Positions 12,910-46,578 of a DNA stretch of 48,480 nt are shown here, piece after piece. The translations under genes and the position numbers were made by a program. Below the pieces are notes generated by a model. It was given only the letters and a program-made list of their open reading frames with translations, was not told the DNA's origin and did no database searches. Each line of letters starts with the position of its first letter. Position 1 is the stretch's first letter. The stretch comes from an uncultured Bacilli bacterium (GTDB lineage: Bacteria; Bacillota_I; Bacilli_A; RF39; UBA660). The stretch spans positions 1 to 48,480 of the forward strand of contig CANRAT010000001.1 of NCBI GenBank assembly GCA_947628685.1. The letters are read 5' to 3'.

Positions 12910-14955
12910 TTATTCATCACTGAAGAAGTCATCAAAGAATTGATCGTCAGTAATTTCATCCTTTAATTCTTGTTGTTCATCTGGAGTTGAAGATTGAACA
13001 ATAGAATTATCATTTTCAGAATTATCAATTTCTTGTTTGTTTTCTTGTTCTAATTTAGCCTGTTCTTGTCTTTCTTCTTCTTCAAGTTCTGCTATTTTAG
13101 CATCTATTCTTTTGACTAAATCATCTACATTAAATCCATTATTAGAAGGCATAGGTTCTCCAGGTGACATAAATGGATTAAATGATGGTTCATTTATTGC
13201 AGGTTCTTTATTATCACCATTTAACATGTTATTTATTTTTTCTTCTCTTTTTTTATTAACAAATTCTTTCAAATCAAAAGTCTGAACGGGATTCTTTTCT
13301 CTTTGAGGATAAGGTGCTTTAGGAAAATTATGACCCCAATTCATTTTAAAGTTTGGAGTTAATTTTGTTTTAAAAGGCATTGTCCTAAGCCTCAAAATTA
13401 TAGTTTCCCATTGACTAAGTCTTTGTAAATCACTAACTGTTACTAATGGGGTTGAAGAAGTTTTTTCTTTTTCTTTCGATTTTACTTCTCCACACATTTT
13501 ACTTATTTCTTCCAAAGCAGATAATTCTGTACTTATTAAATAAACTATATTACCACAGTTACCTTTAATAGTTTCCCCATTTTCTTTTCCATAAACTTCA
13601 TATAATTGAGCAAAGTTTTGAATAATAAATGTAAATCTTATATTTCTTGAACGAGCCGCTGTTACCATTGTAGTAACATCTTTTAGTGGAGGCATATTTG
13701 CAAATTCATCAAGAATAAAATTTGTTCTATGAGGTAATTTACCACCTGATTCTTGAGCAACAGAAATTAAAGTTTCATAACACTGTTTTAAAAATATTGT
13801 AACGAGTGAATGGTACGTAGTTTTTTCATCTTGTATAACTATAAATACTGCTGTTTTTTTCCTTCCTATATCACGCATGTCAAAGTCATTATTAGATAAC
13901 ATCTCAGAAAGATTTGCACGTGAAGCGAATAATTGTATCTTTTGTTTAAATACTGAAAGTATACTTCCCTTTGTTTCTGATGGAGCCATAAGTGTTGAAG
14001 ATGCTTTAGTGTATGCTGTTCCTCCTGGGTCTTTATAACTAAAGTAATCTTTAATATATGTTGTGTTTGCTAATTTTTCTTCACCAATTGTAGTCATTAA
14101 ACTTATACTATTTAAATTTATCTCATTTGGATTAGCATCTTCAAATAAAGCACAAGCAAGTCCCGCAAAATAATCGGCAGACGTATTTTCCCAAAAAGGA
14201 TCTTGTCCTTTTGCTTGAGGATCGTGAAGTATATTAGCAGCAAGGTCTTCTAGTAATTCTATCGATTTATCTATATTACCAGATTTGTAAAGTGAGTAAG
14301 GTAAATACATTGGATTCCAAGCATTACCCTGTTGTGGATCACGGAAATTTAATAGAACAATATTATATCCTAAACTTTTTAAATAATTAGCAGTATTTTC
14401 ATATATTTCGCCTTTAGGGTCAGTAATAATCATTGATTCATCGTGCTTAGCAAGCAAATTAACCATTGGTAAAACTGTTGTTTGTGTTTTACCAGCACCA
14501 GTAGAACCTATAACTATATTGTGATATCCGCCATTATCTACCCATACTTTCTTAGGAGTCATTTTAAGTGGTATTCCAGCAGCATCTGCTTTTGGTGCGA
14601 GGGGATCTACTGCTTTAACATCTAACCCATTTTCAATTTCCTTATCTTTAGCCCATCTCGAATAATTTTTTTCCTTTTTTTGTCCAATAGAAAGGCCAAT
14701 TCCAGCACTATCTTCTTTTTCAATAAATACAGATTTAACTCCTGCAAATGCAGCAATTATTCCTGCTAAAAAAAGTATTATAGTAGCCGCTAAATTTTTA
14801 GGAACAAATCCTAAAAACAAATTAATCGTAAAAGGTTCTTCATTTAAAAAGGCTGAAACATTCGCAACTACTAAGGAAACTACAATTAACCAAAAGAAAG
14901 CAAATATACAAAATATAAATACATCTTTCGCTTCTGCTCTAAACCTTAATTTCAT
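12910..14955 (-). CDS. virD4: Type IV coupling protein (VirD4/TraG/TcpA family)
   Basis: Two N-terminal TM helices. Walker A GSTGAGKTQT and Walker B-like FILDEFANMP. Size (681 aa) and architecture are typical of a T4CP. About 80 aa of acidic C-terminal tail ending DDQFFDDFFSDE. Confidence 0.88.
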   Translation of the reverse strand: MKLRFRAEAKDVFIFCIFAFFWLIVVSLVVANVSAFLNEEPFTINLFLGFVPKNLAATIILFLAGIIAAFAGVKSVFIEKEDSAGIGLSIGQKKEKNYSRWAKDKEIENGLDVKAVDPLAPKADAAGIPLKMTPKKVWVDNGGYHNIVIGSTGAGKTQTTVLPMVNLLAKHDESMIITDPKGEIYENTANYLKSLGYNIVLLNFRDPQQGNAWNPMYLPYSLYKSGNIDKSIELLEDLAANILHDPQAKGQDPFWENTSADYFAGLACALFEDANPNEINLNSISLMTTIGEEKLANTTYIKDYFSYKDPGGTAYTKASSTLMAPSETKGSILSVFKQKIQLFASRANLSEMLSNNDFDMRDIGRKKTAVFIVIQDEKTTYHSLVTIFLKQCYETLISVAQESGGKLPHRTNFILDEFANMPPLKDVTTMVTAARSRNIRFTFIIQNFAQLYEVYGKENGETIKGNCGNIVYLISTELSALEEISKMCGEVKSKEKEKTSSTPLVTVSDLQRLSQWETIILRLRTMPFKTKLTPNFKMNWGHNFPKAPYPQREKNPVQTFDLKEFVNKKREEKINNMLNGDNKEPAINEPSFNPFMSPGEPMPSNNGFNVDDLVKRIDAKIAELEEEERQEQAKLEQENKQEIDNSENDNSIVQSSTPDEQQELKDEITDDQFFDDFFSDE

Positions 14956-14959
14956 TATA

Positions 14960-15427
14960 TCACCATATTTCTACTGTTTCTTCATCTAAATAAACACTAT
15001 ACTGCATCACACCTTTAGTCTTAAAGCCAAAATAATGACCATCTTTAGTATATATTCCAAATATAATGTAACCATTCGCATCTTTTTTATAATATTTATC
15101 CATAGTAGGATAATTCAATGATTTTATATAATTTGAATATTCATTTATACTTTTAAATTTAGCATCTCTATACTCTTCATTTAATAAATTATATGATGCA
15201 CTCAAATCGTGATATACAGTATACATAAAATCATTTAAATATCTTCTTGCCATATCTTCATCACTTATATAAGTTGATATATACTCATTTGCTTCATAAT
15301 GTTTTAAATATTCAATATATCCAAGAGAATTATCTTCTTTATATTTTTTTATTACTAAATAAGATAAAACAAATACTGAGATTAAAACTGCAATAATTAT
15401 AACTGTCTTTACTTGTTTTTTATCCAT
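14960..15427 (-). CDS. Small bitopic T4SS-associated protein (VirB8/PrgL/TcpC-like candidate)
   Basis: N-terminal TM helix plus a soluble domain of about 120 aa. The preferred start is MDKKQVK at 15427 (GGTGA 5 nt upstream), overlapping the upstream stop by 8 nt. The fold assignment is inference from topology and context. Confidence 0.6.
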   Translation of the reverse strand: MDKKQVKTVIIIAVLISVFVLSYLVIKKYKEDNSLGYIEYLKHYEANEYISTYISDEDMARRYLNDFMYTVYHDLSASYNLLNEEYRDAKFKSINEYSNYIKSLNYPTMDKYYKKDANGYIIFGIYTKDGHYFGFKTKGVMQYSVYLDEETVEIW

Positions 15428-15938
15428 TTTGATCACCAACTTTAAATATATCACCAGAATAAGGTTCTACTTCAAAAACACTATTTTTCTTATCTAAGTA
15501 TACAACAAAATACATATCTTTTTTTTCTGGATTTACTAAACTATCATTTTCAGTCAATTGATTTTTTTCAACATATCCATAAACGTAATATTTAGTTATA
15601 TTATTATCTAATTCTTGATAATACATTTTTCTAGAAACAAAAGTTGAATCTGATTCTAATTGTTCAAATAAATCTAATATATTGTTCTCATTAATATTGT
15701 TTTCTTTTTTATAATTTTCTGAAAGTACAAGAAGTAAATTTTTACTATCTTTGGATGATATATAAGTTACAAGCCTATATAAACAAGAATCAACTGTATA
15801 AAAATCACTATAATTAATTACTATATTGATTGGTTTTTCATCTACTTTATCATCATTTTTAAATAAATAAGATAAAACAACAACAAATATAGTCACTATT
15901 ACTAAAATAATCGCAATTAATTTTGATTTATCTTTCAT
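15420..15938 (-). CDS. Small bitopic T4SS-associated protein (second VirB8-like candidate)
   Basis: N-terminal TM helix plus a soluble domain of about 140 aa. AGGTGG RBS. It has the same topology as the downstream neighbour. Confidence 0.6.
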   Translation of the reverse strand: MKDKSKLIAIILVIVTIFVVVLSYLFKNDDKVDEKPINIVINYSDFYTVDSCLYRLVTYISSKDSKNLLLVLSENYKKENNINENNILDLFEQLESDSTFVSRKMYYQELDNNITKYYVYGYVEKNQLTENDSLVNPEKKDMYFVVYLDKKNSVFEVEPYSGDIFKVGDQNG

Positions 15939-17271: not shown

Positions 17272-17919
17272 TTAAAAATCATTTTTTGACATAACTTTTT
17301 TATATACTAAATAAGAAATAAATATTACTACTACAATTAATATAACAATAATTACATATTGAATAGGATTTTTTGTTGTAACATTGCTATCATAAGATAT
17401 TTCAATTTGTTTATTACCATTTTTAGTGATATTCCAAATATATTTATCACCGTCTACTTCCTCAGCATTTGTTGAAATAACCTTATGATTAGTTTTAAAA
17501 ACTACTCTAACACTTTCTAAATTATCATAAAATTCATAACATTCAAAATTAGAACCTGTATTTATTGTTATTATTCCATCATTATTTTCAATTTTAGGAT
17601 TGTTGTAGCACTGATTTAATATTGAAGAATTAATTATTGAAGATGCAGCTTTAGATGTATACTCTACACCCAATCTTTCATCATTAGTTAAAGATTTAAC
17701 ATTATAATTTTCTTGTCCAAATTCATCACTATCAAGTAAAGAGTTAAAACTATCTCTTACAGTCCAACCTGTATCAGTTGTTTTATCAAATATGGTCTTA
17801 TTTGTTTCTATAAGAGTTAATTTTTCACTAATTTTATTATTTTTTATCGTTATTTCATAATTTGCTGTACAACCTGATAAAAATAGACAAGCAATAATTA
17901 ATAGTAATATTTTCTTCAT
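17272..17919 (-). CDS. Lipoprotein with a C-terminal TM anchor (T4SS-associated)
   Basis: Lipobox LFLSG/C at residues 13-17. C-terminal hydrophobic helix IQYVIIVILIVVVIFISYLVY. Confidence 0.7.
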   Translation of the reverse strand: MKKILLLIIACLFLSGCTANYEITIKNNKISEKLTLIETNKTIFDKTTDTGWTVRDSFNSLLDSDEFGQENYNVKSLTNDERLGVEYTSKAASSIINSSILNQCYNNPKIENNDGIITINTGSNFECYEFYDNLESVRVVFKTNHKVISTNAEEVDGDKYIWNITKNGNKQIEISYDSNVTTKNPIQYVIIVILIVVVIFISYLVYKKVMSKNDF

Positions 17920-19945: not shown

Positions 19946-21730
19946 TTATAATCCTCCACCACTACCAAATGAATCTAACTCTTCATCTGATACAATAACA
20001 TTTATTCTCATACGTCTAGAGCCACATATAAATAATGCTTCTCCCTGTCCGTATTGCTTTATACTTTCTTTTTCATTATCATTTAAATCTATTAATTTAG
20101 ATAAATCATCAACCGCTTGCTTTCTTAAACCCATTACAAGGTAATATGAAGCATTATCAAATATTGCCTTACCTTGAGTGATTACACTAGGATCACTAAA
20201 GTCTGTTGGTTGTTGTGTGATTATTATAGTACCTGTATTATATTTTCTAGCACGTCTTTGAATTTGAGCAAGGAAATCAGCACCTAATGTATTTCCTCCA
20301 CTAAGTAGAACGTGTGCTTCATCTACCATCATTACTGTATTAACAGATGAGTCTAGTGTAAGACCCCATGCATACTTAAGTACATTAAAGAATAATGCAT
20401 TTCTAATATTTGAATCAGCATTCATGATTTCTCTTATATTGAATACAATGAAATTACTCTTTGGTTTTATCGTAGTATGTCCATCAAAATAGTATTTTAA
20501 TTCTTTTACTATTGGTCTTATTTTTATTTCAAGTTTTTCAAGTACATCTTTTTCTTGTGACTTTTCTGGCATAGATAATATTCTTCCCTTTATAGTCGCA
20601 TAAACATCCTTAAATGTTGGATAATCTTCAGATTTAAACTTAGTAAAATCTGCATCAAAATCTATACCGAATCTTTTATAAGTTTCTTGAACAACTTCAC
20701 TAAACATATTAACTACATCTTCTTCAATACTAGGATCATAATATTTTAAAAATGCTTTTATTGTTTGTAGTGTTCTAGTAAATACTGTATATCCTAAGCC
20801 CTGCTTCATTTCGTCTTCATCAGCATCAATAACAACTTCAAGAGGATTTATCATACCAAATGATCCACCTTTACCAAGACTAATAAAATCTCCACCAAAA
20901 GTAGCAGTCATTTCTTCTAATTCCCCTTCAGGATCTATTACAACTATTTGATTATTATTTCTTATATGACTTCTAAGTAATAATTTTGCTGCAGTAGATT
21001 TACCACTTCCAGATGTACCTAAAATAATCATATTTGCATTATTTCTATTGTTTTCCTTCTTTATTTGGTATAAAAATTGGTTAAATAATATAACTCCTCC
21101 AGAAAAATCTATACCAAGTAATGTAGACAAACCTGGATCCTTAATACTATCAAATATAAATGGATACATAGCAGCAATAGAAGGTGATGGAATTGGAGTA
21201 CCAATTCTATCTTCTATATCTTGTTTACCATAAATAGGTAAAATAGATTTCAATACTTTATCTTGTTCAAATCTAAGTGGAATAGCTCTTAATTCCATTG
21301 CTTCTAAATAATTTTTTACTTGAACCTTTTTAGCATCCAATTCTTCTTGTGTATTTGCAGTTATCATGACATGCATCTGAAAATCAAATATTTTAGATTG
21401 ACTAGCAGCAAGTTCACTTATAAACATTTCTAGCGAATCATAATCCTGTCTAATTCTTTCTTTTATAGTATTATCTCTTTCGTCTTGATATCTTTGACGC
21501 AAATCAGCAAGTTCCTTATTTAACATCCTGCTAATACTGCTGAATGGAAGTGGTATATGTTTAATTACAACTTTAATTCCAGACATACTAGTTAAACTAC
21601 TTAAATATCCTGGGTATATAAATTTTGGATAAGATATAATGGTTAATATACATGCATATTTATCACTAATAACAAATTCATTTGATTTAAATTCTAGGCC
21701 TTTAGGCGCTATTTGACTTCTAATATCCAT
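19946..21730 (-). CDS. virB4: VirB4-family T4SS ATPase, C-terminal (ATPase) part
   Basis: Walker A LGTSGSGKST, Walker B MMVDEAHVLL, and IIITQQPTDF. The N-terminus (IAPKGLEF...YACILTIISYP) matches the middle region of VirB4/TrsE proteins. Confidence 0.88.
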   Translation of the reverse strand: MDIRSQIAPKGLEFKSNEFVISDKYACILTIISYPKFIYPGYLSSLTSMSGIKVVIKHIPLPFSSISRMLNKELADLRQRYQDERDNTIKERIRQDYDSLEMFISELAASQSKIFDFQMHVMITANTQEELDAKKVQVKNYLEAMELRAIPLRFEQDKVLKSILPIYGKQDIEDRIGTPIPSPSIAAMYPFIFDSIKDPGLSTLLGIDFSGGVILFNQFLYQIKKENNRNNANMIILGTSGSGKSTAAKLLLRSHIRNNNQIVVIDPEGELEEMTATFGGDFISLGKGGSFGMINPLEVVIDADEDEMKQGLGYTVFTRTLQTIKAFLKYYDPSIEEDVVNMFSEVVQETYKRFGIDFDADFTKFKSEDYPTFKDVYATIKGRILSMPEKSQEKDVLEKLEIKIRPIVKELKYYFDGHTTIKPKSNFIVFNIREIMNADSNIRNALFFNVLKYAWGLTLDSSVNTVMMVDEAHVLLSGGNTLGADFLAQIQRRARKYNTGTIIITQQPTDFSDPSVITQGKAIFDNASYYLVMGLRKQAVDDLSKLIDLNDNEKESIKQYGQGEALFICGSRRMRINVIVSDEELDSFGSGGGL

Positions 21731-22269
21731 TATGCTAACACCGTCCCAAATGTGGTAGTTTGCCCACCATTTAAGAAATTATCAAGAATCATTCTTAAAT
21801 CATCATTATTAGTTTGAAATGCAGTAAGTCCAGCAGAAGCAAAATTATTTATTAAAGTACGAATCCTTTTTTGTATTAAATCATTATCCTTTTCCTTAAA
21901 CAATAAGAAGTATTCTGTATCTACAACATTATTGTTCATAAACATATTTGCCTTATTTATATCTTCCATTACCAACTTTCTTTTTCTAGCATCTGTTAAT
22001 TTATTATAGTGCAACTGAAGTTCAGATAGATAAACATTAATGTCTACAGGTCTATCGGCAACAATAATCCAAAATTCATAATCTATAGCATTATAAACAT
22101 TCTTTAAATTAGTTATAATCGCATCTTGCATTGCCTGATCAAGTATAAAAATATTTCTAGGCATTATTTTAATACCTGTCACTTTTTGATTATTATCAAG
22201 TACAATCACGCCATTTGAAATATCCTTTACAGGAACATCCGTATATTTACTTTTTATCTCTTTCGCCAT
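21730..22269 (-). CDS. VirB4 N-terminal-domain-like protein (split VirB4, N-terminal part)
   Basis: About 180 aa. VTGIKIMPRNIFILDQAMQDAIITNLKNVYNAIDYEFWIIV resembles the N-terminal region of Gram-positive VirB4/TrsE proteins. Its TAA stop overlaps the ATG of the ATPase ORF (TAATG). The preferred start is MAKEIK at 22269. Confidence 0.6.
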   Translation of the reverse strand: MAKEIKSKYTDVPVKDISNGVIVLDNNQKVTGIKIMPRNIFILDQAMQDAIITNLKNVYNAIDYEFWIIVADRPVDINVYLSELQLHYNKLTDARKRKLVMEDINKANMFMNNNVVDTEYFLLFKEKDNDLIQKRIRTLINNFASAGLTAFQTNNDDLRMILDNFLNGGQTTTFGTVLA

Positions 22270-22567
22270 TATTTGCACACCAACCCTTCCATATATATTT
22301 TTGCCTTGTCGTATAAAATATCCAAGCATTTCTTATTACAGTACGTACATTATGGTAATTTGGAACAGGTATTACCAAAAAGCCACATATAAGTCCTGGA
22401 ATAATAGCAATAATTGCCATTGCAAAATTTTGAACGGGTAAGGCCATCATAAGTAAGAATGATAGCCCTACTCCGCATCCAAATATAACCAAATCTGATG
22501 TAGTAAATGCACCAAATTTAAGCATACTCTTTTTTGAGTTTGCTGGTATTAAATATGAATTGTCCAT
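22247..22567 (-). CDS. VirB3/PrgI/TcpE-like small membrane protein
   Basis: 106 aa. It has the KFGAFTTSDLVIF motif followed by two TM helices, and sits immediately upstream of VirB4 as in Gram-positive T4SS loci. Confidence 0.7.
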   Translation of the reverse strand: MDNSYLIPANSKKSMLKFGAFTTSDLVIFGCGVGLSFLLMMALPVQNFAMAIIAIIPGLICGFLVIPVPNYHNVRTVIRNAWIFYTTRQKYIWKGWCANNGERDKK

Positions 22568-22584: not shown

Positions 22585-25068
22585 TTATTTTTTAGATTTT
22601 GTATATTGTGCAACATCTTTGATATGAGCCATTTTTCCTGATGAAGTTTGAGCAACTGCACCTTTAGATGATTTACTCATTGTAACAAAATCGGCATTGC
22701 CATTTTCAATATCATCATCAGAAGGTACATACATTTCTTCAAACTCATCATCAACTTCTTTACCAGTTTGATTAACTTGTCTAGCAAGGCTAATCATTGC
22801 TTCTTTAGATTCTCTAATTACTTTATCCGCTGAAGCTTGTCCTGTTCCTTGTCTTTCAACTGTTTCTCCTGTTGTCTCATCTGTTGTTTCGTAGAATACT
22901 TGCCCGTTAGCTAACTCATTTATAGCTTTTTCTAATTCGCTTTCTTTATCAGCCTTAGCCTTCTTTTGAGCATCAACTGCTTCTTGATACTGCTCTTCAA
23001 CTGTTTTGCCTTCAATATCATCAAACATACTTTCATTTAAAGCGTCACGGCTAGCCTCAGCATCGTGAATTTGATCATCAATATTTTCTCCTTCTATTGC
23101 ATTTTTTTGATCTTGTAAAGCCGCTATTCTCTGCGTATATGCAGCATTTGCAGCATAAAAATCTGTATCAGAAGAATAATCAGAACGTGACAATTTTGAT
23201 TGCTCATTTCTTAATCTTGTTATTTCCAAATTTAATTCCCCAGATCTATTGGTATTTTCTAACTTTTTAGATTTCAATTCGGCAATTCTAGTATCATATG
23301 ATGTTCTCGCTTCTTCCACTTGCTGTGCTTTAGTTTTACCTGCTATATCTTTAAATGAAGCTCTATCTATTTGTGTCTTTTCTATTTGTTCTAACTCCTT
23401 TGCTATCGTTTTTGCACTTTTTCTTGCTACCTTATTTCCATCAGCATCTTTTGTATATGAATTATCATTTTTATCACAAGCTATAGCTTGATTTTTCATC
23501 GCTTCATATTGAGATTGGACAGCTTTTGCTTTTGATTCAACTTGACCAACTTTTTCTGCTGCTGTTGTTCCCACAAATTTAGATTTAAAAGATTCCCAAC
23601 TTGCTTTCATAGGCGAAACCCCGTTTGCTCTCATGTTTGCAACTTGTTTTTTTCTCTCGTGTGCTGCTTTATACGAATTTGAAAAATTCCTTCCAAACTT
23701 TTCTCCTCTTAAAGCTCCTCCAAACGCTTTGCCCATTCCTCTTAATCCTTGACCTGTTAATACAGCAGCGCCTCCTACTAATCCAGCAGTCGCTACTCCT
23801 TTTACTGGCCTAAATGCAGTCTTAGCGGTTTTTACCATTTGCTTTCCACCTAATGCTTGATCTTCAAATTTTTTAAGTGGATTAAGTTGGAATCCTCCTC
23901 CATCTAACTTAATGCCAAGCCCTTCAAGTAGTTTTGGTAATTGTTTAGCAAACATTAAAGCTCCTATGATAATAAATATTTTAATTATTAAACTATTAAC
24001 ATATGCTCCTGTTATAATATCCGTCATTCTATCTACTCTTGCAATTATAAATACTGCAAAATATAAAGCTAATAATCTAATAAATAAACTTAAATATGTT
24101 TTAAAACACATTTGATACCATTTTTTAAACAATCCATCTTTTCCACTTTTAGGATCAACATATGAAATTATTGGAATTGGCGCAACTAACTGCAAAACTG
24201 CAAGTTTTATACTACGAAGCGCAACATCCATACAAAAACTTATTAAAAGTAATACTATTACAACGCCTACTATAGTACTAAAAACATATCTATATTCAAT
24301 TATATAATTTTCATTATCTACATCTGTTGCAGTAGCTATATCCAACCTAAACATTAAAGGAAAATTTCCAATTTCTACACCTGTTACATAATTTTTTAAA
24401 GCATCTATACTAAATCTTCCGTTTGATTCTTCTGCTAAAGCATATAAAGATGTAGTATCATTATTATAAACCCAATCATCACCGGAATATGTTAATCCAG
24501 AGCAGCTTTCATTAAATACTTTTCTACCATTTTCTCTTATTTCGTTAGTTGTAAGTTGTGCACATTCATAGGCCTCTGTTATACCTAAATTTGGTGCGAA
24601 AAACGGAAGCATTGTCATATACGCCATTGTATCTCCAGCACTATTAAATGTATCATAATTAGATTGATCATCGCCGAATATGAGTGCAGAAAGCGAATTA
24701 TCTTCCAATATTATTGTTTGTAATTGATATGCATAACTAAATATATAAGGAGTTAGTATTAAAAGTGATAAAGATATTATTATATTTGTTCCAAGTTTTG
24801 TAACACCCTTTGATTTATCTGAAAAATCATCTGGATTAACTACATACATTATCAAAGAAAATGTAACTTTAAATACCATAAAAACAGCCAATAATTCATA
24901 TACTCTGTTAGCAACAATTGCTAAATCTGCATGTGAAAGAATTGAAGTTCTAGCAATGTTTATTAAAATCTCATAAAGCATTGAAATAAAATTATAGACA
25001 AGTTTATCAATATTAAAGAAAAATGTTCTCATTAAAGTTTGAAACCACATATTAGCTAAAACAAACAT
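22585..25068 (-). CDS. VirB6/TrbL-like polytopic T4SS channel protein with a long hydrophilic C-terminal extension
   Basis: The N-terminal ~400 aa has at least 6 TM helices. The C-terminal ~420 aa is a charged, coiled-coil-like region. AAGGAGGAG RBS. Confidence 0.7.
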   Translation of the reverse strand: MFVLANMWFQTLMRTFFFNIDKLVYNFISMLYEILINIARTSILSHADLAIVANRVYELLAVFMVFKVTFSLIMYVVNPDDFSDKSKGVTKLGTNIIISLSLLILTPYIFSYAYQLQTIILEDNSLSALIFGDDQSNYDTFNSAGDTMAYMTMLPFFAPNLGITEAYECAQLTTNEIRENGRKVFNESCSGLTYSGDDWVYNNDTTSLYALAEESNGRFSIDALKNYVTGVEIGNFPLMFRLDIATATDVDNENYIIEYRYVFSTIVGVVIVLLLISFCMDVALRSIKLAVLQLVAPIPIISYVDPKSGKDGLFKKWYQMCFKTYLSLFIRLLALYFAVFIIARVDRMTDIITGAYVNSLIIKIFIIIGALMFAKQLPKLLEGLGIKLDGGGFQLNPLKKFEDQALGGKQMVKTAKTAFRPVKGVATAGLVGGAAVLTGQGLRGMGKAFGGALRGEKFGRNFSNSYKAAHERKKQVANMRANGVSPMKASWESFKSKFVGTTAAEKVGQVESKAKAVQSQYEAMKNQAIACDKNDNSYTKDADGNKVARKSAKTIAKELEQIEKTQIDRASFKDIAGKTKAQQVEEARTSYDTRIAELKSKKLENTNRSGELNLEITRLRNEQSKLSRSDYSSDTDFYAANAAYTQRIAALQDQKNAIEGENIDDQIHDAEASRDALNESMFDDIEGKTVEEQYQEAVDAQKKAKADKESELEKAINELANGQVFYETTDETTGETVERQGTGQASADKVIRESKEAMISLARQVNQTGKEVDDEFEEMYVPSDDDIENGNADFVTMSKSSKGAVAQTSSGKMAHIKDVAQYTKSKK

Positions 25069-25556: not shown

Positions 25557-25580
25557 CTTTATTCCTCCTCAACTAATATA

Positions 25581-35848: not shown

Positions 35849-35996
35849 ATTATCACCTACCACCTTCTATTTTATAAATTTATTTTATCACATATTAATA
35901 TTTTAAACAATAGTTTTTTTATTTTTTTCACTAAATTTATATGAATAGTCACATTTAACTGATATTGTATGTTTATAATTTACACTTTTTTTACAA

Positions 35997-36659
35997 TCAT
36001 AATTTAAAACTATTTCGTTTATTGCTTACATACATAATTAATCCACATATAGCAATAATAGCTATTAAAAATATATAATAATATTTAGTATAAATTTTTG
36101 TTAATAAATCAATAAATCCAGTTTCATATTCTATTTCATTTTTAGTCTCATCTTTTTTATTTAAGCTACTTTTATATTGTAAAACTAAAGTTTTAAATCT
36201 ATCATATGTATAACTGTTATCAATCCACTTTTGGCATAGACCATAACCTCTTATATCATCACAAATAGGGTCGTTAAAATATTGATTATATACAGGAAAT
36301 TTATAATATTTTGAACCTATTGATAAACCATTGCAATCACTTAAATTAGAATAAAACTTATATGTTCCCGAATTAATACTATAATTTCTTATTACAAGTT
36401 CCCCATTATTTGTATCACTAAAATAATAATAAGTATTTAATCCAGAATCATATAAATATATATCATCAGTTAAATTATTAATAGTAACATCAAAATAAAT
36501 TTCTCCATTTGTTTCATGATAATCATAGGAAATATTTATATTGCTTACAATAGATTTAAGTCTAGATATTTGTGAATATTCACATCCACCATAGGTTAGT
36601 GCTTTTGCATAAGATAACCCTAGAAAGAACATAATTACTACTATAATTATTTTTTTCAT
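35997..36659 (-). CDS. Secreted protein with a C-terminal TM anchor, unknown function
   Basis: Signal peptide MKKIIIVVIMFFLGLSYAKA, a Tyr/Asn-rich ectodomain of about 170 aa with 4 Cys, and the C-terminal helix YYYIFLIAIIAICGLIMYV. The preferred start is the ATG at 36659 (AGGTGG upstream). Confidence 0.6.
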   Translation of the reverse strand: MKKIIIVVIMFFLGLSYAKALTYGGCEYSQISRLKSIVSNINISYDYHETNGEIYFDVTINNLTDDIYLYDSGLNTYYYFSDTNNGELVIRNYSINSGTYKFYSNLSDCNGLSIGSKYYKFPVYNQYFNDPICDDIRGYGLCQKWIDNSYTYDRFKTLVLQYKSSLNKKDETKNEIEYETGFIDLLTKIYTKYYYIFLIAIIAICGLIMYVSNKRNSFKL

Positions 36660-36666
36660 ATTCCAC

Positions 36667-38241
36667 CTACTTGAGTATATATTCATAATGAGAATTTCTT
36701 AAATTGAAAATAATTTTAATTTCATCGGCACTCTTAATATCAGAAATAACTCCTATATATGCAGTATTTGCTTCACTTGACTTTTTACTTTTAATTTGTT
36801 CAAAATTACTTTCTTGATTATACCACTTATCCCCTATTTTATATGATATATATCCAAAACTACTTAAAAAATCGTAAAATGTTTTTGAATCTATATAACT
36901 ATTGTTTGAATATTCTACATTTAATTTTAATATATATTTATCAAATGTAGTATTTATAGTTGGTTTTAAATATTCTATAGAATTTATGCAATCATTATCT
37001 GACATACAATAGTTATAAGAAATTAAAAACTTATCACTTACCTCAAAACTATTAATTTTAAACTTAATATCTCCTAAAACTTCTTCAAATGACATTAATT
37101 CACCCACATTAACTGATATAGAATTATTAGAAATTTCTAGTTGTGATGGTTTTAAATTTATATCTATTTTATAATCAAGTCCATTATATATTAATTTCAT
37201 TTTACTATTTGTAAATTTATTAGGGACTTCAAAAACTAATAAATAATTTTGCAATTCTTTATCTAATATGTCTTCTTTGTACGTTTTTCCCAAATCTATT
37301 AGACTGTTTTCATAGTTAGATACAGGTTTGAATTTTATCCCACCAATATTTAAAGTAAAATTATTTAAATAAAGAAATTTATTTTCTATCGAAGAATTTA
37401 AAGACAAATTAACAGCTACCAAAGAAGTATCATTAGTTGAAAGATTAAGGCCTTCATAATTTTCTTTAACTACTTTGGTTGAATTAACTTGTATACCGTA
37501 ATTGCTAACATAGTAAAGCTGTCTTTCAACTTTTTTATCACTATTTCTTTTTAAGACAACAATGGCACTAGTAAGCGCTATCAAAGCGCAAAATGAAAGT
37601 ATACATACATTTATAATAAATCTATTTTCTACATAAGCATATTTTAAATTTCTAAATTTTTCTTTTCTTTTTCTTTTTAATTCGTCAAAATCAACATTTA
37701 CATTTACTTCTATTTCTTCTCTATCACTTTCAGATATTTCAATATTTGAAAGATCAGAATCAAAATCAAATTTTTTAAAATTAATACTCATTCCACGTGC
37801 GATAAAAACAGTTATCATCACGCTTTGTATAATAACACTTATAAGTACTAAATCGTGTATCAATTTAACAGAACTAACAGATAGAATTTCTTCTTCCATA
37901 AGTTTTAAAAAATTTGCTGTATATACATTTATTATTAATACAACTATAAATGAAAAAATACATATAAAATAAAAAGTAACAGGCTTATGTTTCTTAAACA
38001 TTATACCTAGTATTATCATAACTATAACTAATACAACTATTGGTACTACATAAAATAAACTATTAATATATGTACTTTTTATTTCAGTTCCAACCACACT
38101 AGTAGTATTGTGTAGATAATTATTTAAAAAATTTAGTATTTTATTATTTGTAATTATTGAATAAAAAATTATTAGTGAAATAAGCAAATGGAGAGGCTTA
38201 AACACTTTTATAAAAAACGCATAAGGTTTTTTTAATATCAT
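36667..38241 (-). CDS. Polytopic membrane protein with a large extracellular beta-rich C-terminal domain, unknown function
   Basis: About 5 TM helices with a charged cytoplasmic loop (EISESDREEIEVN...KRKRKEK), then a C-terminal ectodomain of about 290 aa. AAGGAGAGG RBS. Confidence 0.6.
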   Translation of the reverse strand: MILKKPYAFFIKVFKPLHLLISLIIFYSIITNNKILNFLNNYLHNTTSVVGTEIKSTYINSLFYVVPIVVLVIVMIILGIMFKKHKPVTFYFICIFSFIVVLIINVYTANFLKLMEEEILSVSSVKLIHDLVLISVIIQSVMITVFIARGMSINFKKFDFDSDLSNIEISESDREEIEVNVNVDFDELKRKRKEKFRNLKYAYVENRFIINVCILSFCALIALTSAIVVLKRNSDKKVERQLYYVSNYGIQVNSTKVVKENYEGLNLSTNDTSLVAVNLSLNSSIENKFLYLNNFTLNIGGIKFKPVSNYENSLIDLGKTYKEDILDKELQNYLLVFEVPNKFTNSKMKLIYNGLDYKIDINLKPSQLEISNNSISVNVGELMSFEEVLGDIKFKINSFEVSDKFLISYNYCMSDNDCINSIEYLKPTINTTFDKYILKLNVEYSNNSYIDSKTFYDFLSSFGYISYKIGDKWYNQESNFEQIKSKKSSEANTAYIGVISDIKSADEIKIIFNLRNSHYEYILK

Positions 38242-38260: not shown

Positions 38261-40747
38261 TTAACGTTTACTACTATTATTTACTGTTACTACATTTCTT
38301 GAAATTAAAGTAGTTAAATAATTGCTTGTACAAATCTTTCCTTCACTATCACATGTCATATTAAAGTCATCGTATGTTGTTCCTGAATTATAATTCCTAA
38401 TTTCTTGAATTGTTTGTGGTGTGAGAGTTATTACATATTTTGGCTCTACTTTTGCATTTGTTTTAGGTATTATCCCATACCTATTTGGTGTATTTTGCAT
38501 TATTGTCTCTGAATATAAATCTTTACCCGTTGATATATATTCATTCATTAATGTTAAATCTGATGCATCAATATTTCCATCTCTATTGATATCGTATTTG
38601 TCTTCTAAAGTATCTATTCTTTCCATTACTATATTGTAATCGCTTGCATCAAATTTACCATCACCATTAATGTCTAGACTATCCATTGTCCAGTTTGTTC
38701 CTGCTTTTCTGGTATTACCACTCTTTCCTGGAAATGAATCTTCTACATCTACACTCCTATATTTTAAATTTAATTCATTATTTAGTATCTCATTAAATAT
38801 ATCATATGTACAAGATGTATTATCGTTTGCTATTGTATTACCTATTGGATCACTTATCCTAAATGGAATTGTTTTTCTAATTGTTGTTGTCTCTGAATCT
38901 AATTTGGTAACATATCCATATCCTAAAAATCTGCAATTGAAACATTGCGTAAATGATGTTTCTCCTGTTCCAATTTTAGAATATACTGAAGGTAGGTTAT
39001 ATAATTTCTTATATGTATATGTAAAAACTGAATATCCACTTCCAGAATATGAATTTGATGTAGTATCTAATAATTCATTTGTTAATTCATTATCATTTAA
39101 TGAAACACTTCCTACATACTTTGAATAATCTTTATTATCTGTAAAATTGTTTGGTGTTCCAAATACGTAACACGTTCTTGTTACCGTTCCTTCTCCTATT
39201 TTAGGTTCTTTTAAGTTTAATAACATTTGACCTGATTTTATCTTTCCAAAATAATGATTATTTGTTATACCTAATACATTTGAAAAATTAAATGTATGTC
39301 CACAAAATGCAGTATAATTATTATTTAAAGTAATTTCTTCTTCAAATCCTGATAAATTATTTTCATTAAAATTACTAATACTAATATCTGCATACATACA
39401 ACCATATTTTTTATTGTAATTTGGTGTCGCATTATTTGTACAAGTTGGATTTGAGAAATCTAAAAGCCCTTTCTTTTTATATTTGTTATATAAAGTTACT
39501 AATTGATTTCTTGTAGGATTAGAACCTAATGATTCTAACTCGCTTTGACAACTTTTTTTATTTGTTACAGTTATACTCTTATCCGAATTGATTAATACTC
39601 TCATAGTTCTTCCACTCATACTTATACAGCCAACACAACTTCCTGCTTCATATCCACTAGGTAATGTTTCTGTTAAAGCATAAGTAATTGTACTTGCTGG
39701 TATACCTGTTATCTCACAAACACCATTAATATTTGTAGTACAAGTCATAGGAGAAATGCCGTTACCACTTAATGTGAATTTAACGCCACTAATAGGACTA
39801 TTTGTTGTACTATCTTTTTTTGTTATTTTTAAAGTATATTTTGTAGGAGTTGGATTATCTCCTGGATCTCCTGGATCGGGTGGATAATCAGGAAAAATAT
39901 CATCAATTATATATTTAAAATATCCGCATCCAGAGTAATCACTTGTTAATCTACCAGTTTGACCACTTCCAGAATTTTGAATAGGGCAAGAACTTTTGCC
40001 TGCTATTTGTAAGGCAGTTGACATTGAACCGTATATATACTGAAAATCTAATCCAGGTGTGCTAGTTGTTGTTGTTTTGCACAAATTGCCTTCAGGACCA
40101 GAATATGCAACATTAAGTCCCATTAAAGCAGTTGATGTTCCAAAATATTTCGCACCATCACAAAATACAAGCGTAACTGGCTCTATTATTATCAAATCAC
40201 CTGATTTAATATTATTAAAGTCATAACCTATAACGCTCAAAACGCCTCTTTGCTTATCTGCTAAATTATAATAAGAATTATCTCTTAAATAATTGTCTAA
40301 ATATGTACCACTACTAGCCGTATCTCTAGTCCAACTATTTCCAAGATTATTTCCATATAAGCAACCTTTAAATTTAACTGTCTGAGCGCTTGTACAACTT
40401 GCAGTAGAGCCTACATTTTTAATTTTGTCATAATCATATCCTGTTGTAGTACAAACCTTAACATCACTTAATTCTCCATAACAATCACCCTTTGAATTTG
40501 CTAGTGCGAAATACCCTTCATTAATTGTTGTTCCATTCCTAATAACTCTTACGCGAATATCATTTAAATAAGGTGATGGCCATTTTGTTGAACTTCCTGA
40601 AGCATCTCCACCAGTTTCTCCACCTGGTGACCCACCTGGAGTATTCTCATCATAAATATCAAACGCTATAGCTGTACTTGTACATATTAAAATGAGTGCA
40701 AACACAATGGATATAATTATTATACATTTTCCTATATTTTTTTTCAT
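38261..40747 (-). CDS. Secreted adhesin-like protein A (Cna-B/SpaA-like domain plus dockerin-like EF-hand pair)
   Basis: Signal peptide. Cna-B/SpaA-like segment KYTLKITKKDSTTNSPISGVKFTL...YALTETLPSGYEA. Dockerin-like segment DINGDGKFDASDYNIVM...DINRDGNIDASDLTLMNEYI. No LPXTG. AGGAG RBS. Confidence 0.75.
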   Translation of the reverse strand: MKKNIGKCIIIISIVFALILICTSTAIAFDIYDENTPGGSPGGETGGDASGSSTKWPSPYLNDIRVRVIRNGTTINEGYFALANSKGDCYGELSDVKVCTTTGYDYDKIKNVGSTASCTSAQTVKFKGCLYGNNLGNSWTRDTASSGTYLDNYLRDNSYYNLADKQRGVLSVIGYDFNNIKSGDLIIIEPVTLVFCDGAKYFGTSTALMGLNVAYSGPEGNLCKTTTTSTPGLDFQYIYGSMSTALQIAGKSSCPIQNSGSGQTGRLTSDYSGCGYFKYIIDDIFPDYPPDPGDPGDNPTPTKYTLKITKKDSTTNSPISGVKFTLSGNGISPMTCTTNINGVCEITGIPASTITYALTETLPSGYEAGSCVGCISMSGRTMRVLINSDKSITVTNKKSCQSELESLGSNPTRNQLVTLYNKYKKKGLLDFSNPTCTNNATPNYNKKYGCMYADISISNFNENNLSGFEEEITLNNNYTAFCGHTFNFSNVLGITNNHYFGKIKSGQMLLNLKEPKIGEGTVTRTCYVFGTPNNFTDNKDYSKYVGSVSLNDNELTNELLDTTSNSYSGSGYSVFTYTYKKLYNLPSVYSKIGTGETSFTQCFNCRFLGYGYVTKLDSETTTIRKTIPFRISDPIGNTIANDNTSCTYDIFNEILNNELNLKYRSVDVEDSFPGKSGNTRKAGTNWTMDSLDINGDGKFDASDYNIVMERIDTLEDKYDINRDGNIDASDLTLMNEYISTGKDLYSETIMQNTPNRYGIIPKTNAKVEPKYVITLTPQTIQEIRNYNSGTTYDDFNMTCDSEGKICTSNYLTTLISRNVVTVNNSSKR
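38268..39885. repeat. Copy 1 of a 1,618-bp direct repeat (3' two-thirds of adhesin A)
   Basis: Matches 40864-42481 at a constant offset of 2,596 bp. The boundaries were read base by base and spot-checked at three internal positions. The ORF-track translations are identical on both strands. Confidence 0.85.
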
Positions 40748-40853: not shown

Positions 40854-43346
40854 TTAGCTTCGCTTACTACTATTATTTACTGTTACTACATTTCTTGAAA
40901 TTAAAGTAGTTAAATAATTGCTTGTACAAATCTTTCCTTCACTATCACATGTCATATTAAAGTCATCGTATGTTGTTCCTGAATTATAATTCCTAATTTC
41001 TTGAATTGTTTGTGGTGTGAGAGTTATTACATATTTTGGCTCTACTTTTGCATTTGTTTTAGGTATTATCCCATACCTATTTGGTGTATTTTGCATTATT
41101 GTCTCTGAATATAAATCTTTACCCGTTGATATATATTCATTCATTAATGTTAAATCTGATGCATCAATATTTCCATCTCTATTGATATCGTATTTGTCTT
41201 CTAAAGTATCTATTCTTTCCATTACTATATTGTAATCGCTTGCATCAAATTTACCATCACCATTAATGTCTAGACTATCCATTGTCCAGTTTGTTCCTGC
41301 TTTTCTGGTATTACCACTCTTTCCTGGAAATGAATCTTCTACATCTACACTCCTATATTTTAAATTTAATTCATTATTTAGTATCTCATTAAATATATCA
41401 TATGTACAAGATGTATTATCGTTTGCTATTGTATTACCTATTGGATCACTTATCCTAAATGGAATTGTTTTTCTAATTGTTGTTGTCTCTGAATCTAATT
41501 TGGTAACATATCCATATCCTAAAAATCTGCAATTGAAACATTGCGTAAATGATGTTTCTCCTGTTCCAATTTTAGAATATACTGAAGGTAGGTTATATAA
41601 TTTCTTATATGTATATGTAAAAACTGAATATCCACTTCCAGAATATGAATTTGATGTAGTATCTAATAATTCATTTGTTAATTCATTATCATTTAATGAA
41701 ACACTTCCTACATACTTTGAATAATCTTTATTATCTGTAAAATTGTTTGGTGTTCCAAATACGTAACACGTTCTTGTTACCGTTCCTTCTCCTATTTTAG
41801 GTTCTTTTAAGTTTAATAACATTTGACCTGATTTTATCTTTCCAAAATAATGATTATTTGTTATACCTAATACATTTGAAAAATTAAATGTATGTCCACA
41901 AAATGCAGTATAATTATTATTTAAAGTAATTTCTTCTTCAAATCCTGATAAATTATTTTCATTAAAATTACTAATACTAATATCTGCATACATACAACCA
42001 TATTTTTTATTGTAATTTGGTGTCGCATTATTTGTACAAGTTGGATTTGAGAAATCTAAAAGCCCTTTCTTTTTATATTTGTTATATAAAGTTACTAATT
42101 GATTTCTTGTAGGATTAGAACCTAATGATTCTAACTCGCTTTGACAACTTTTTTTATTTGTTACAGTTATACTCTTATCCGAATTGATTAATACTCTCAT
42201 AGTTCTTCCACTCATACTTATACAGCCAACACAACTTCCTGCTTCATATCCACTAGGTAATGTTTCTGTTAAAGCATAAGTAATTGTACTTGCTGGTATA
42301 CCTGTTATCTCACAAACACCATTAATATTTGTAGTACAAGTCATAGGAGAAATGCCGTTACCACTTAATGTGAATTTAACGCCACTAATAGGACTATTTG
42401 TTGTACTATCTTTTTTTGTTATTTTTAAAGTATATTTTGTAGGAGTTGGATTATCTCCTGGATCTCCTGGATCGGGTGGATTAAAAATATCATCAATGTT
42501 ATATTGAAAATATCCGCATCCAGAATACTCACTATGTAATCTACCAGTTTGACCACCTCCTTTATTTGTAACAGGGCAAGAGGGTTTGCCTGCCGTTTGC
42601 AAAGCAGTTGACATTATGCTATATACGTTCATAAAATCTGCATATGGTGCGTTAGTTGTTGTAGTATTATTACACTGGTGACCATCCACACCAGAATAAT
42701 TGATATTAGATCCCATTAAAGCAGTCGATGTACCAAAATATCGTACATTATCACAAACAACAAGTGTAGCAGGCTCTATTATTACTTTGTCTCCTTTTTG
42801 TGCATTATTAGCATTATAACCCATGCGATCTAAAACGGTTTCTTTTAAATTTTTATATGAATTATTTTTTAAATAATCGTTTAGATAATTACCATTACCG
42901 GAATCTCGTGTCCAACTATTGCCTAAATTTTCACTATCTAAGGATCCACTAAAATTAAATTGACTTTGTACGTTAGTAGTACAACTTGCATCTTTTGCAG
43001 CATCTGATATTGAATTGTAATTATAACCAGATGTCGTACACACTTTAACTTCTGTTATGTATCCCACATCTTTTAAGTTGTTGTCATTTGGATTTTTTAA
43101 TAAAAAGTATGATTCTTTTAAAACAGAATTACCTCTAAATATTCTTACACGAATAGAATTTAAATAAGGTGATGGCCATCTTGTTGGTTTGCCTGTTCCA
43201 TCTCCATTTCCACCCTCAATAAAAGGACTACCTGGATTATTTTCATCATAAATATTATATGCCAAAACGCTTTTTATACAAATTGTTATTAGTATAAGTA
43301 AAGATATATAAATTATACTTTTTCCTACATGTTTATTAATATTCAT
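40854..43346 (-). CDS. Secreted adhesin-like protein B (paralog of A with a divergent N-terminal ~290 aa)
   Basis: Signal peptide. From PPDPGDPGDNPTPTKY to the C-terminus the sequence is identical to A, except for one extra terminal Ser. The N-terminal region is clearly homologous but diverged. Confidence 0.75.
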   Translation of the reverse strand: MNINKHVGKSIIYISLLILITICIKSVLAYNIYDENNPGSPFIEGGNGDGTGKPTRWPSPYLNSIRVRIFRGNSVLKESYFLLKNPNDNNLKDVGYITEVKVCTTSGYNYNSISDAAKDASCTTNVQSQFNFSGSLDSENLGNSWTRDSGNGNYLNDYLKNNSYKNLKETVLDRMGYNANNAQKGDKVIIEPATLVVCDNVRYFGTSTALMGSNINYSGVDGHQCNNTTTTNAPYADFMNVYSIMSTALQTAGKPSCPVTNKGGGQTGRLHSEYSGCGYFQYNIDDIFNPPDPGDPGDNPTPTKYTLKITKKDSTTNSPISGVKFTLSGNGISPMTCTTNINGVCEITGIPASTITYALTETLPSGYEAGSCVGCISMSGRTMRVLINSDKSITVTNKKSCQSELESLGSNPTRNQLVTLYNKYKKKGLLDFSNPTCTNNATPNYNKKYGCMYADISISNFNENNLSGFEEEITLNNNYTAFCGHTFNFSNVLGITNNHYFGKIKSGQMLLNLKEPKIGEGTVTRTCYVFGTPNNFTDNKDYSKYVGSVSLNDNELTNELLDTTSNSYSGSGYSVFTYTYKKLYNLPSVYSKIGTGETSFTQCFNCRFLGYGYVTKLDSETTTIRKTIPFRISDPIGNTIANDNTSCTYDIFNEILNNELNLKYRSVDVEDSFPGKSGNTRKAGTNWTMDSLDINGDGKFDASDYNIVMERIDTLEDKYDINRDGNIDASDLTLMNEYISTGKDLYSETIMQNTPNRYGIIPKTNAKVEPKYVITLTPQTIQEIRNYNSGTTYDDFNMTCDSEGKICTSNYLTTLISRNVVTVNNSSKRS
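40864..42481. repeat. Copy 2 of the 1,618-bp direct repeat (3' two-thirds of adhesin B)
   Basis: See copy 1. About 70 bp of 5' UTR/promoter sequence (…AACTTTTAATTTTAAAAAAA(A)TGTTGTATAATCAAAATAGGATAGGAG…) is also conserved upstream of both genes. Confidence 0.85.
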
Positions 43347-46064: not shown

Positions 46065-46076
46065 AATAAATTCCTC

Positions 46077-46475
46077 CTATCTGCATTCATATCCAAATTC
46101 AATGTAATTGTCTTTAATTTCTTTTCGCTTATTAAAACTATCATTAGTATTTATTTTAATTTTTGTTGTTACCACATTATTTTCCAATAATACTTTATCA
46201 AATGACTCTAATGCACTCTCATAATATTCCCTTGCTTGTTCATTAGTATCAAAAGTTGTGTATTCAATTGCCATAAGGCTTTTAAAATTGCCAAGCCAAT
46301 CAAATTTAATTTGTTTTTCTTCTATACTTCCAAAATTACCTTCTCTTGTACACACTAAAGTCTTATTATCTGCAAATGGATTAGGTATTACAGTCAAATA
46401 TACAAGTAAAAATAATATCAATCCTATTCCTAGTATACCTAAAAGTACATACAATATAATTTTTCTATTATTCAT
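46077..46475 (-). CDS. Small membrane-anchored protein, first gene of the supercluster
   Basis: MNNRKIILYVLLGILGIGLILFLLVYL TM anchor plus about 100 aa. The preferred start is the ATG at 46475 (GAGGT 7 nt upstream). Its TAG stop overlaps the RBS of adhesin C. Confidence 0.6.
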   Translation of the reverse strand: MNNRKIILYVLLGILGIGLILFLLVYLTVIPNPFADNKTLVCTREGNFGSIEEKQIKFDWLGNFKSLMAIEYTTFDTNEQAREYYESALESFDKVLLENNVVTTKIKINTNDSFNKRKEIKDNYIEFGYECR

Positions 46476-46578
46476 GTTATCTACCTCTATGCTAATTATA
46501 CATTTTTTTGCCATTAAAGTCTATATTTCCTTGTATAATTTTTAAAAATAAATTATAATATTTGTGGAGTTGACACTT

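Follow-up and report, generated by a model that had tools for sequence, protein, structure and literature searches.

Does a gene cluster in which a type IV secretion system (T4SS), a pilus-type ATPase module and large adhesins follow upon one another represent a new hybrid machine, a mobile element, or an apparatus that a cell maintains for its own use? This question is raised by a 48,480-nucleotide stretch of DNA from an uncultured Bacilli bacterium (GTDB lineage Bacteria; Bacillota_I; Bacilli_A; RF39; UBA660; assembly GCA_947628685.1, contig CANRAT010000001.1, positions 1 to 48,480 of the forward strand), termed the window in the following, which carries such a cluster at positions 12910-46514. 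A preliminary description of the sequence had regarded this block as a hybrid in which two machines usually encoded apart have been fused. The composite turned out to be that of a standard conjugation operon of pLS20-family plasmids, and judging from sequence comparisons the block is probably a chromosomal, vertically inherited descendant of the mating-pair-formation (MPF) machinery of these plasmids, i.e., a domesticated T4SS of the monoderm type. The combination itself is already known from the pLS20 family; what is unusual is that the window showed neither a relaxase nor a recombinase nor att repeats, that the flanks recur in other species and that the system is so widely distributed. The literature on secretion systems of RF39/RFN20 and on VirB4 together with CpaF in Firmicutes yielded no description of the locus.

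The block of 33.6 kb consists of an unbroken run of 30 minus-strand open reading frames (ORFs) of at least 60 amino acids (aa), read from 46514 down to 12910. The run as such had been recognized before; the number of genes is 30 rather than the about 32 originally counted, and the junctions, described as mostly tight, comprise 19 of 29 that overlap or measure at most 20 bp and ten gaps of 31-159 bp, several of which contain strong promoter motifs. In agreement with the preliminary description, the GC content of the block (0.22-0.34) does not set it apart from its surroundings (0.21-0.30; about 27% for the window overall), and GC skew is negative across the block and most of the left flank. For comparison, 84 related loci of about 20 kb each (numbered with the prefix L) were compared by tblastn with window proteins, and gene order was inspected in 80 species loci. 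The part of the block that is transcribed last encodes the T4SS core:

12910-14955, minus strand: VirD4-type coupling protein, 681 aa, two N-terminal transmembrane (TM) segments; Pfam T4SS-DNA_transf PF02534 5.4e-57 (well above cutoff), TrwB_AAD_bind and TraG-D_C
14960-15938, minus strand: pair of small bitopic proteins (164 and 172 aa) with a possible VirB8-like role; one N-terminal TM segment each, position kept in L093-L095
15947-17257, minus strand: secreted cell-wall hydrolase; Peptidase_M23 1.4e-24, weak lysozyme-like C-terminus (Phage_lysozyme 2e-3)
17272-17919, minus strand: lipoprotein, 215 aa, lipobox LSGC, C-terminal TM anchor; found in 15 loci at 28% identity
17927-19936, minus strand: 669-aa membrane protein with C-terminal cysteine-peptidase-like domain, putative second wall hydrolase; positional orthologs with CHAP or Peptidase_C39_2
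19946-21730, minus strand: VirB4 ATPase, 594 aa; AAA_10 and P-loop_TraG 4e-12, profile hidden Markov model (HMM) against plasmid VirB4 1e-39
21730-22329, minus strand: TrsD-like protein, a separate homolog of the VirB4 N-terminus; PF26593 TraC-like, weak, on the identical/orthologous product
22247-22567, minus strand: VirB3/PrgI-like protein, 106 aa, two TM segments; PrgI 2.6e-3 (below cutoff), HMM against plasmid DUF5592 4.6e-4
22585-25068, minus strand: VirB6-like polytopic protein, 827 aa, long coiled C-terminal extension; TrbL_4 3.4e-9 (above cutoff), HMM against the pLS20_p028 family 1.3e-8

All parts by which a T4SS core is recognized, i.e., VirB4, a type IV coupling protein and VirB6- and VirB3-like subunits, are thus found in the block. 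The profiles bear out the earlier calls for VirD4, which also matches pLS20-family VirD4 (HMM, 2e-51), for VirB4 and for the VirB6-like protein, while the VirB3-like assignment, made from the PrgI and DUF5592 HMM matches, and that of the VirB2-like proteins described below are of moderate confidence. What had been described as a split VirB4 gene is a normal TrsD-VirB4 pair: the smaller product matches PF26593, the two genes are separate in every relative, and adjacent separate genes for TrsD and VirB4 are the arrangement of monoderm T4SSs (PMC12102498). The TrsD-like gene, present in 61 loci, probably starts near 22269, yielding a protein of 179 aa. For the 164- and 172-aa bitopic proteins a VirB8-like role is suggested from position only, because Pfam and PDB profile searches gave no match. 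In relatives the first hydrolase gene encodes M23 plus glucosaminidase; the window copy of the 669-aa protein gave no match in a Pfam scan.

A second set of genes lies farther upstream in the direction of reading:

31722-33415, minus strand: two polytopic membrane proteins of 263 and 300 aa, partners of the ATPase; counterparts of pLS20 genes 39 and 38
33427-34605, minus strand: CpaF/VirB11-family secretion ATPase, 392 aa; T2SSE 4e-26, HMM against plasmid CpaF/VirB11 family protein 7e-53
34607-35416, minus strand: CpaB-like bitopic SAF-domain protein, 269 aa; TIGR03177 pilus_cpaB 1.3e-7 for the window copy
35432-35863, minus strand: DUF5411 protein, 143 aa, bitopic, KESxWG N-terminus; PF17424 8.8e-47

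These genes, together with small proteins at the junction to the T4SS part, had been interpreted as a Tad pilus module. Reminiscent of Tad/Flp (type IVc) pili are a CpaF-family ATPase and, after it, two membrane proteins that resemble TadB/TadC in size and topology, as well as a CpaB-like SAF protein, small N-terminally hydrophobic subunits and a cytoplasmic protein in the position of TadZ. Profiles support a T2SSE-domain ATPase and a CpaB-like protein, the latter with moderate confidence: TIGR03177 matches 29 of 29 orthologs, the best at 8.9e-14, which still falls short of the curated cutoff of 71 bits. For the ATPase TadA cannot be preferred to VirB11 because models for VirB11, TadA and FlaI score alike, both in NCBIfam (VirB11 4e-33, TrbB 5e-26 and TadA 7e-26, all below cutoff) and among PDB profiles (FlaI 3e-18, CpaF 1e-16, VirB11 4e-15). 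The proposal that this "TadA" might supply the VirB11-type ATPase fits its homology (7e-53) to the plasmid gene called a putative VirB11 (PMC8557374).

The labels TadB, TadC, TadZ, Flp and GT-C, on the other hand, found no profile support. TadB and TadC are not supported for the membrane pair, which has an N-terminal TM segment, a TM pair, a soluble domain and a C-terminal TM segment, since a T2SSF domain was found neither with Pfam nor with PDB profiles, hhalign or an AlphaFold2 (AF2) model of middling quality. The window pair gave no Pfam match, T2SSF (PF00482) was hit by 1 of 23 and 0 of 24 orthologs (E = 0.048), scans of the orthologs against Pfam up to E <=10 returned noise only, and PDB profile searches with both proteins were empty. 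Foldseek with the AF2 model of the 263-aa protein (121 homologs, pLDDT 64) found nothing in the PDB below E = 0.6, the cytoplasmic domains of EpsF and OutF appearing only at ranks 16-32 with E ~3, and hhalign of the 263- against the 300-aa profile gave no signal of paralogy. TadZ is not supported for the junction protein Z, which lacks a ParA/MinD or TadZ signature, and Flp for the 76-aa protein, for which there is no profile match, no motif and no TadV peptidase gene in the window.

Between the two sets lie the genes for VirB2-like and other small pilin-like proteins:

25170-27658, minus strand: three paralogous VirB2-like pilins of 128, 141 and 153 aa, with a 371-aa bitopic protein encoded among them at 25616-26731
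27741-28748, minus strand: protein Z, 335 aa, cytoplasmic, junction gene; no family assignment
28763-29708, minus strand: pair of small pilin-like paralogs, bitopic, 160 and 152 aa, M(K/R)E(S/A)xG N-terminus; in 80 of 84 loci
29790-31304, minus strand: polytopic membrane protein, 504 aa, about 10-12 TM segments, GT-C-like; lineage-specific insertion, in 2 of 84 related loci
31416-31646, minus strand: 76-aa single-TM protein, candidate major subunit; invariant N-terminus MKEAAGEANMTV

The VirB2-like identity of the array is held with moderate confidence, as T4SS_pilin (PF18895) matches two window copies at 4e-3 and 1e-2, below cutoff, and 13 of 37 orthologs, the best at 6.7e-7. The 141- and 153-aa copies have a signal peptide and two TM segments and share a conserved KEDEIKKGQQ motif. 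The N-terminus of the 76-aa protein (MKEAAG/EANMTV) is at least 90% conserved among 62 orthologs, lacks a G/xxxxEY motif (no E5-Y6) and gave no match to Flp and TadE profiles. Protein Z remained without a match in a Pfam scan of 37 diverse members and in a PDB profile search even at E = 10, and its AlphaFold model (20 homologs, pLDDT 47.7) is too poor to use. The 504-aa gene, without a match in Pfam and NCBIfam, is an insertion and stands outside the conserved system.

Only three perfect TTGACA-N16-18-TATAAT sites occur in the 48-kb window (25581-25609, 27694-27722 and 29736-29764, minus strand), all on the coding strand and directly upstream of pilin-like genes, two of them VirB2-like; the chance expectation for such perfect sigma-70 sites is 0.21, and none of 100 shuffles contained three or more. 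The 76-aa gene is preceded by a promoter matching at 11 of 12 positions with an extended -10 element (31676-31705), and perfect sites recur at equivalent positions in many relatives. Strong promoters at these genes would suit subunits made in large amounts, as filaments require.

Two observations concern the surroundings of the 76-aa gene. The GT-C-like gene at 29790-31304, found only in the window genome and two relatives, follows directly after it, and in L059 the 76-aa gene and Z are directly preceded by a YfhO-family (GT-C) gene (7105-9612). These positions hint that the Ser/Thr/Cys-rich tail of the subunit is glycosylated.

The closest relationship of the block as a whole is to conjugative plasmids. 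A tblastn search of plasmids with the ATPase found "CpaF/VirB11 family protein" on conjugative MOBP plasmids of Bacillus, Enterococcus, Listeria and Lactococcus. The operons of pBamB1895, pZB18 and pLIS25 start with an adhesin of the MucBP, SpaA or thioester type, a ~125-aa protein, the ATPase, two membrane proteins and a ~120-aa protein, and continue with tiny proteins including one of the TrbC/VirB2 family, VirD4, pLS20_p028 (VirB6-like), DUF5592, a ~200-aa protein, VirB4, a hydrolase and a MobP2 relaxase. HMMs derived from the lineage match the positional counterparts on the plasmids for 9-10 components. DUF5411 HMMs match the gene-36 equivalents at 2e-4, 3e-4 and 1e-2, with weak Pfam DUF5411 matches in 3 of 3; in the membrane pair, which occurs in the same order, the second protein matches at 4e-6, 1.6e-5 and 2.6e-3 and the first at 6.7e-4; the 160-/152-aa pair weakly matches pLS20 gene-40 equivalents (6e-3 to 4e-2).

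The component set of pLS20-family plasmids (pLS20 genes 34-54) is therefore common to the block, and the order nearly so. Counterparts exist for the surface adhesin, the DUF5411-like gene 36, ATPase gene 37, membrane genes 38/39, bitopic gene 40 and the tiny single-TM protein as well as for the VirB2-like 2-TM protein, VirD4, the VirB6-like and VirB3-like (DUF5592) proteins, the ~200-aa protein, VirB4 and the wall hydrolases, and the sequence of DUF5411-like gene, ATPase, two membrane proteins and bitopic protein upstream of the T4SS genes is the same. Differences are that VirD4 precedes VirB6 on the plasmids and comes last in the block, and that the block contains the CpaB-like protein, Z, a three-gene VirB2-like array and three adhesins in addition. 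The plasmids encode a MobP2 relaxase, replication and regulation functions and transfer themselves, whereas the block has no relaxase, is chromosomal, sits at a fixed site and occurs species-wide. In the literature pLS20 gene 37 is listed as a putative VirB11, genes 36 and 38-41 as unknown, and the family is stated to lack VirB2 (PMC8557374). At odds with statements that VirB2 homologs are absent, the conjugation operon of pZB18 contains a protein annotated by NCBI as TrbC/VirB2 family (L091, 23473-23751).

A further point of comparison is an operon of DUF5411, CpaF and PilC/GspF without a T4SS that has been predicted in the clostridial genera Roseburia, Ruminococcus and Eubacterium (PMC9523054). 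It shares with the block a DUF5411 gene next to a CpaF-type ATPase and a membrane platform, with adhesion proteins nearby (PMC9523054), and differs in having 8-9 genes, no T4SS genes and a recognizable PilC/GspF, which the membrane pair of the block is not. The existence of this operon indicates that the ATPase module is a pilus-type unit able to stand alone that was joined to the T4SS before the lineage fixed it.

With regard to distribution, Z has more than 5,697 homologs, which form 453 clusters at 50% identity, and it occurs in at least 369 GTDB species genomes, whose titles name uncultured Bacilli, Tenericutes or Mollicutes bacteria, Acholeplasma sp. CAG:878 or Ca. Fimihabitans. An ortholog (P0315) from Ca. 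Fimihabitans intestinipullorum lies on a contig of 1,041,197 bp, and genomes of the lineage may be about 1 Mb in size. In nearly all loci with enough flank the order, starting from the adhesin end, is adhesins, 524-aa protein, 229-aa protein, DUF5411, CpaB, ATPase, two membrane proteins, 76-aa protein, two bitopic proteins, Z, VirB2-like array, VirB6, VirB3, TrsD, VirB4, hydrolases and VirD4. Median identities amount to 81% for VirB4 (59 loci) and the ATPase, 73% for TrsD, 61% for VirD4 and 56% for Z, and decrease to 38% for VirB6 and 28% for the adhesins, fast evolution of surface-exposed parts being expected for contact surfaces.

The chromosomal position is likewise conserved. On the right, the block of the window is followed by scpA and scpB (called by eye, with a Pfam ScpA match on the L008 ortholog) and then by a tRNA gene:

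47945-48031: tRNA-Leu, beyond scpAB

On the left, Pfam identifies PGA_cap, DUF2238, RmuC, a histidine kinase, RodA and rhodanese, i.e., housekeeping functions, to which RNase R and SmpB, called by eye and by Pfam matches on syntenic genes of relatives, are added. These are the core-gene flanks that had been described initially. scpA/scpB adjoin the adhesin end in five related loci (L008, L014, L018, L021 and L081), and in three further species (L093-L095) VirD4 is followed by rhodanese, RmuC, DUF2238, RNase R, PGA_cap and SmpB as in the window. In loci that hold both, ScpA and ScpB are 54-82% identical to those of the window, and VirB4 and the ATPase score higher there; in L014 the two motor ATPases reach 94 and 91 against 82 and 74 for ScpA and ScpB. 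Identities of components co-vary across loci, including those of both halves (Spearman 0.5-0.8). ATPases that are more conserved than ScpA/B, combined with co-varying identities, argue for vertical descent under strong constraint and not for a roaming element.

Genes for mobility are lacking in the range covered. As previously noted for the window, family scans of 40 of its ORFs returned no relaxase, recombinase or prepilin peptidase, the four flank ORFs outside the scan (SmpB, RNase R, ScpA and ScpB) being identified by eye and through Pfam matches of the syntenic genes in related species. A tblastn search with three MobP2 relaxases against the window and 1.48 Mb of related loci gave noise only, no oriT or DDE transposase was seen in either, and between the block borders there are neither direct repeats of at least 13 nt nor a duplicated tRNA-Leu fragment. 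The view that the system is chromosomally fixed and domesticated, already put forward in the preliminary description, is upheld by the same flanks in other species, by the lack of relaxase, integrase and att repeats and by a divergence that tracks ScpA/B. Without a DNA-nicking enzyme, at a fixed site and conserved in hundreds of species, the block has the appearance of conjugation machinery that the cell has recruited for a task of its own.

The genes at the beginning of the run encode envelope and adhesin-like proteins:

35997-38241, minus strand: two conserved envelope proteins, 229 and 524 aa; in 43 and 37 loci, about 33% identity
38261-46064, minus strand: three secreted adhesin-like proteins, 828, 830 and 852 aa; SpaA prealbumin-fold domains, two also with dockerin repeats (Dockerin_1)
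46077-46514, minus strand: 145-aa bitopic protein, first gene of the run; ORF with TM segment

The adhesin-like nature of the three large proteins, noted from the start, is corroborated by the Pfam families SpaA and Dockerin_1. In two of them (38261-40747 and 40854-43346) the C-terminal ~540 aa agree at 100% of positions, but identity is only about 50% in the N-terminal ~300 aa, which suggests recent duplication or gene conversion with a variable binding head. All three share a C-terminal motif of about 60 aa and have no LPxTG. The 229-aa protein has a signal peptide and a C-terminal anchor, the 524-aa protein about 6 TM segments and an outer domain, and a Pfam scan gave no match for either. 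For the 145-aa protein no family match was obtained, and its membership in the system is uncertain because tblastn in the related loci was empty.

In the left flank two type IV prepilin-like (N_methyl) proteins are encoded (5591-7327 and 11303-12388) with GFTLxELL N-termini, one of them with DUF6273; neither a prepilin peptidase nor PilB/PilC was found in the window. They occupy the slots between rhodanese, RmuC and RNase R, in which relatives encode secreted proteins of 329-412 aa with a large head and a VirB2/T4SS_pilin-like C-terminus (L093 12473-13462 and 15307-16329; L094 14259-15293; L095 14685-15923).

If the block is indeed a domesticated descendant of pLS20-type machinery, it would comprise two parts: a monoderm T4SS core of VirB2-like pilins, VirB6, VirB3, TrsD, VirB4, wall hydrolases and VirD4, and an ancestrally attached module of DUF5411, the CpaB-like protein, the CpaF/VirB11 ATPase, its two membrane partners and the small bitopic pilin-like proteins, both preceded by variable SpaA-type adhesins. 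The relaxase/oriT part would have been lost or never present, and strong purifying selection would maintain the remainder across a large lineage of uncultured low-GC gut Bacilli/Tenericutes-like bacteria. Adhesins and strongly transcribed pilin-like subunits, possibly assembled into a filament, would contact another cell, two or three hydrolases would open the wall, and a channel of VirB4, TrsD, VirB3 and VirB6, energized also by the CpaF/VirB11 ATPase, would move macromolecular cargo selected by VirD4, either protein or DNA without a dedicated relaxase. The machine would then serve the cell, in interbacterial or host interaction, and not the spread of a mobile element.

The same genes could also belong to a machine that conjugates chromosomal DNA within the lineage, independently of a relaxase or with one acting in trans, comparable to chromosomal transfer in mycoplasmas and to the archaeal Ced/Ted systems. 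VirD4 has been kept at 80-90% identity in close relatives, all core parts of a conjugative monoderm T4SS are present, the lineage is annotated as Tenericutes/Mollicutes-like and unconventional transfer of chromosomal DNA by T4SS components has been reviewed (PMC12857230). Since neither relaxase nor oriT nor DDE transposase turned up in the window or the related loci and nothing in the sequence indicates DNA as cargo, we regard this reading as rather unlikely. A further point against it is that VirD4 of effector T4SSs recruits protein substrates too. An ordinary integrative and conjugative element (ICE), with relaxase, integrase and att sites just outside the window, is strongly disfavored: a complete MPF gene set with VirD4 and a nearby tRNA-Leu would suit it, yet scpAB lies between the block and the tRNA, several species share the housekeeping genes and their order on both sides, GC matches the flanks, divergence tracks ScpA/B, the borders showed no att-like repeats, and no relaxase homolog was found in the 1.48 Mb of related loci.

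More improbable than DNA exchange, in our estimation, is that two independent machines lie side by side without functional coupling, a Tad-like adhesive pilus with its adhesins and a separate T4SS. That the halves can occur apart, which the preliminary description had named as evidence that would refute its view, is illustrated by the clostridial operon without a T4SS (PMC9523054) and by a minority of the relatives: in four species (L054, L070, L085 and L088) the 76-aa gene, the bitopic pair, Z and the T4SS genes lie beside housekeeping genes without an ATPase block within about 9 kb. Such split loci show that adjacency of the halves is not obligatory, and the block contains several internal promoters. 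However, almost every one of the 80 species loci has the two halves next to each other in the same order, and pLS20-family plasmids from Bacillus, Enterococcus and Listeria show this arrangement independently. The component identities of both halves co-vary, and where the block is split, Z and the small pilin-like genes have remained with the T4SS genes and not with the ATPase, which argues against two unrelated machines. Further reduction is seen in L059, L061, L065 and L086 (~9,700-11,000 in each), which have the 76-aa gene and Z only, and in L084, which has the bitopic pair and Z only; in these loci the genes are surrounded by housekeeping functions (YfhO, tRNA synthetases, UvrD). No other gene of the system is as persistent as Z, and paired with one or two small pilin-like genes it may have a role of its own.

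Several points weigh against descent from pLS20-type machinery with a coupled cellular function. The block is broken up in 8-9 of the 84 related loci, so its parts are perhaps not strictly interdependent. The plasmid matches of the membrane pair and the small proteins are weak (E 1e-2 to 4e-6, small ORF set) and partly based on position. A relaxase could lie elsewhere in the genome, the search having covered the window and the loci of about 20 kb. Because T2SSF, TadZ and Flp failed, pilus assembly by the ATPase module is deduced from the CpaB and DUF5411 context and from promoter strength, and the function proposed for the whole is inferred.

The T4SS of Patescibacteria (e.g., Southlakia epibionticum) offers the closest conceptual parallel, drawn from published descriptions. 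Like the block it has a monoderm core of the MPF_FATA type, is chromosomal and contains VirB2-like arrays matching PF18895, VirB6, VirB3/PrgI and TrsD-VirB4; it usually lacks a relaxase, is widely conserved in a lineage with small genomes and is thought to have been co-opted (PMC12102498, PMC12857230). Patescibacteria differ in belonging to another phylum, in that VirD4 is mostly unlinked and in that no CpaF/VirB11-module or adhesin genes have been reported with the T4SS. Their system has been shown to be essential for epibiotic growth (PMC12102498, PMC12857230). One may speculate that the bacteria studied here lead an obligate cell-to-cell lifestyle (epibiotic, parasitic or syntrophic) dependent on the machine, as Patescibacteria do, that the apparatus builds a genuine filament, of VirB2 type or driven by CpaF, on a Gram-positive envelope, and even that Patescibacteria acquired their T4SS, VirB2-like arrays included, from a monoderm stock represented by this system; we consider this doubtful.

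A recent review holds that Gram-positive T4SSs lack VirB2-type pilins, the only exception being Patescibacteria, whose system it describes as unique among monoderms (PMC12857230). A Firmicutes-related lineage with a relaxase-less, chromosomally fixed T4SS and a VirB2-like array stands against this single exception and would be a second case, independent or ancestral, of a conjugation machine turned into a cellular organelle. As the tractable pLS20-family plasmids carry the same CpaF/VirB11 module, work on pLS20 could show the role of this module in both settings, and the finding bears on the origin of the pilins of Patescibacteria.

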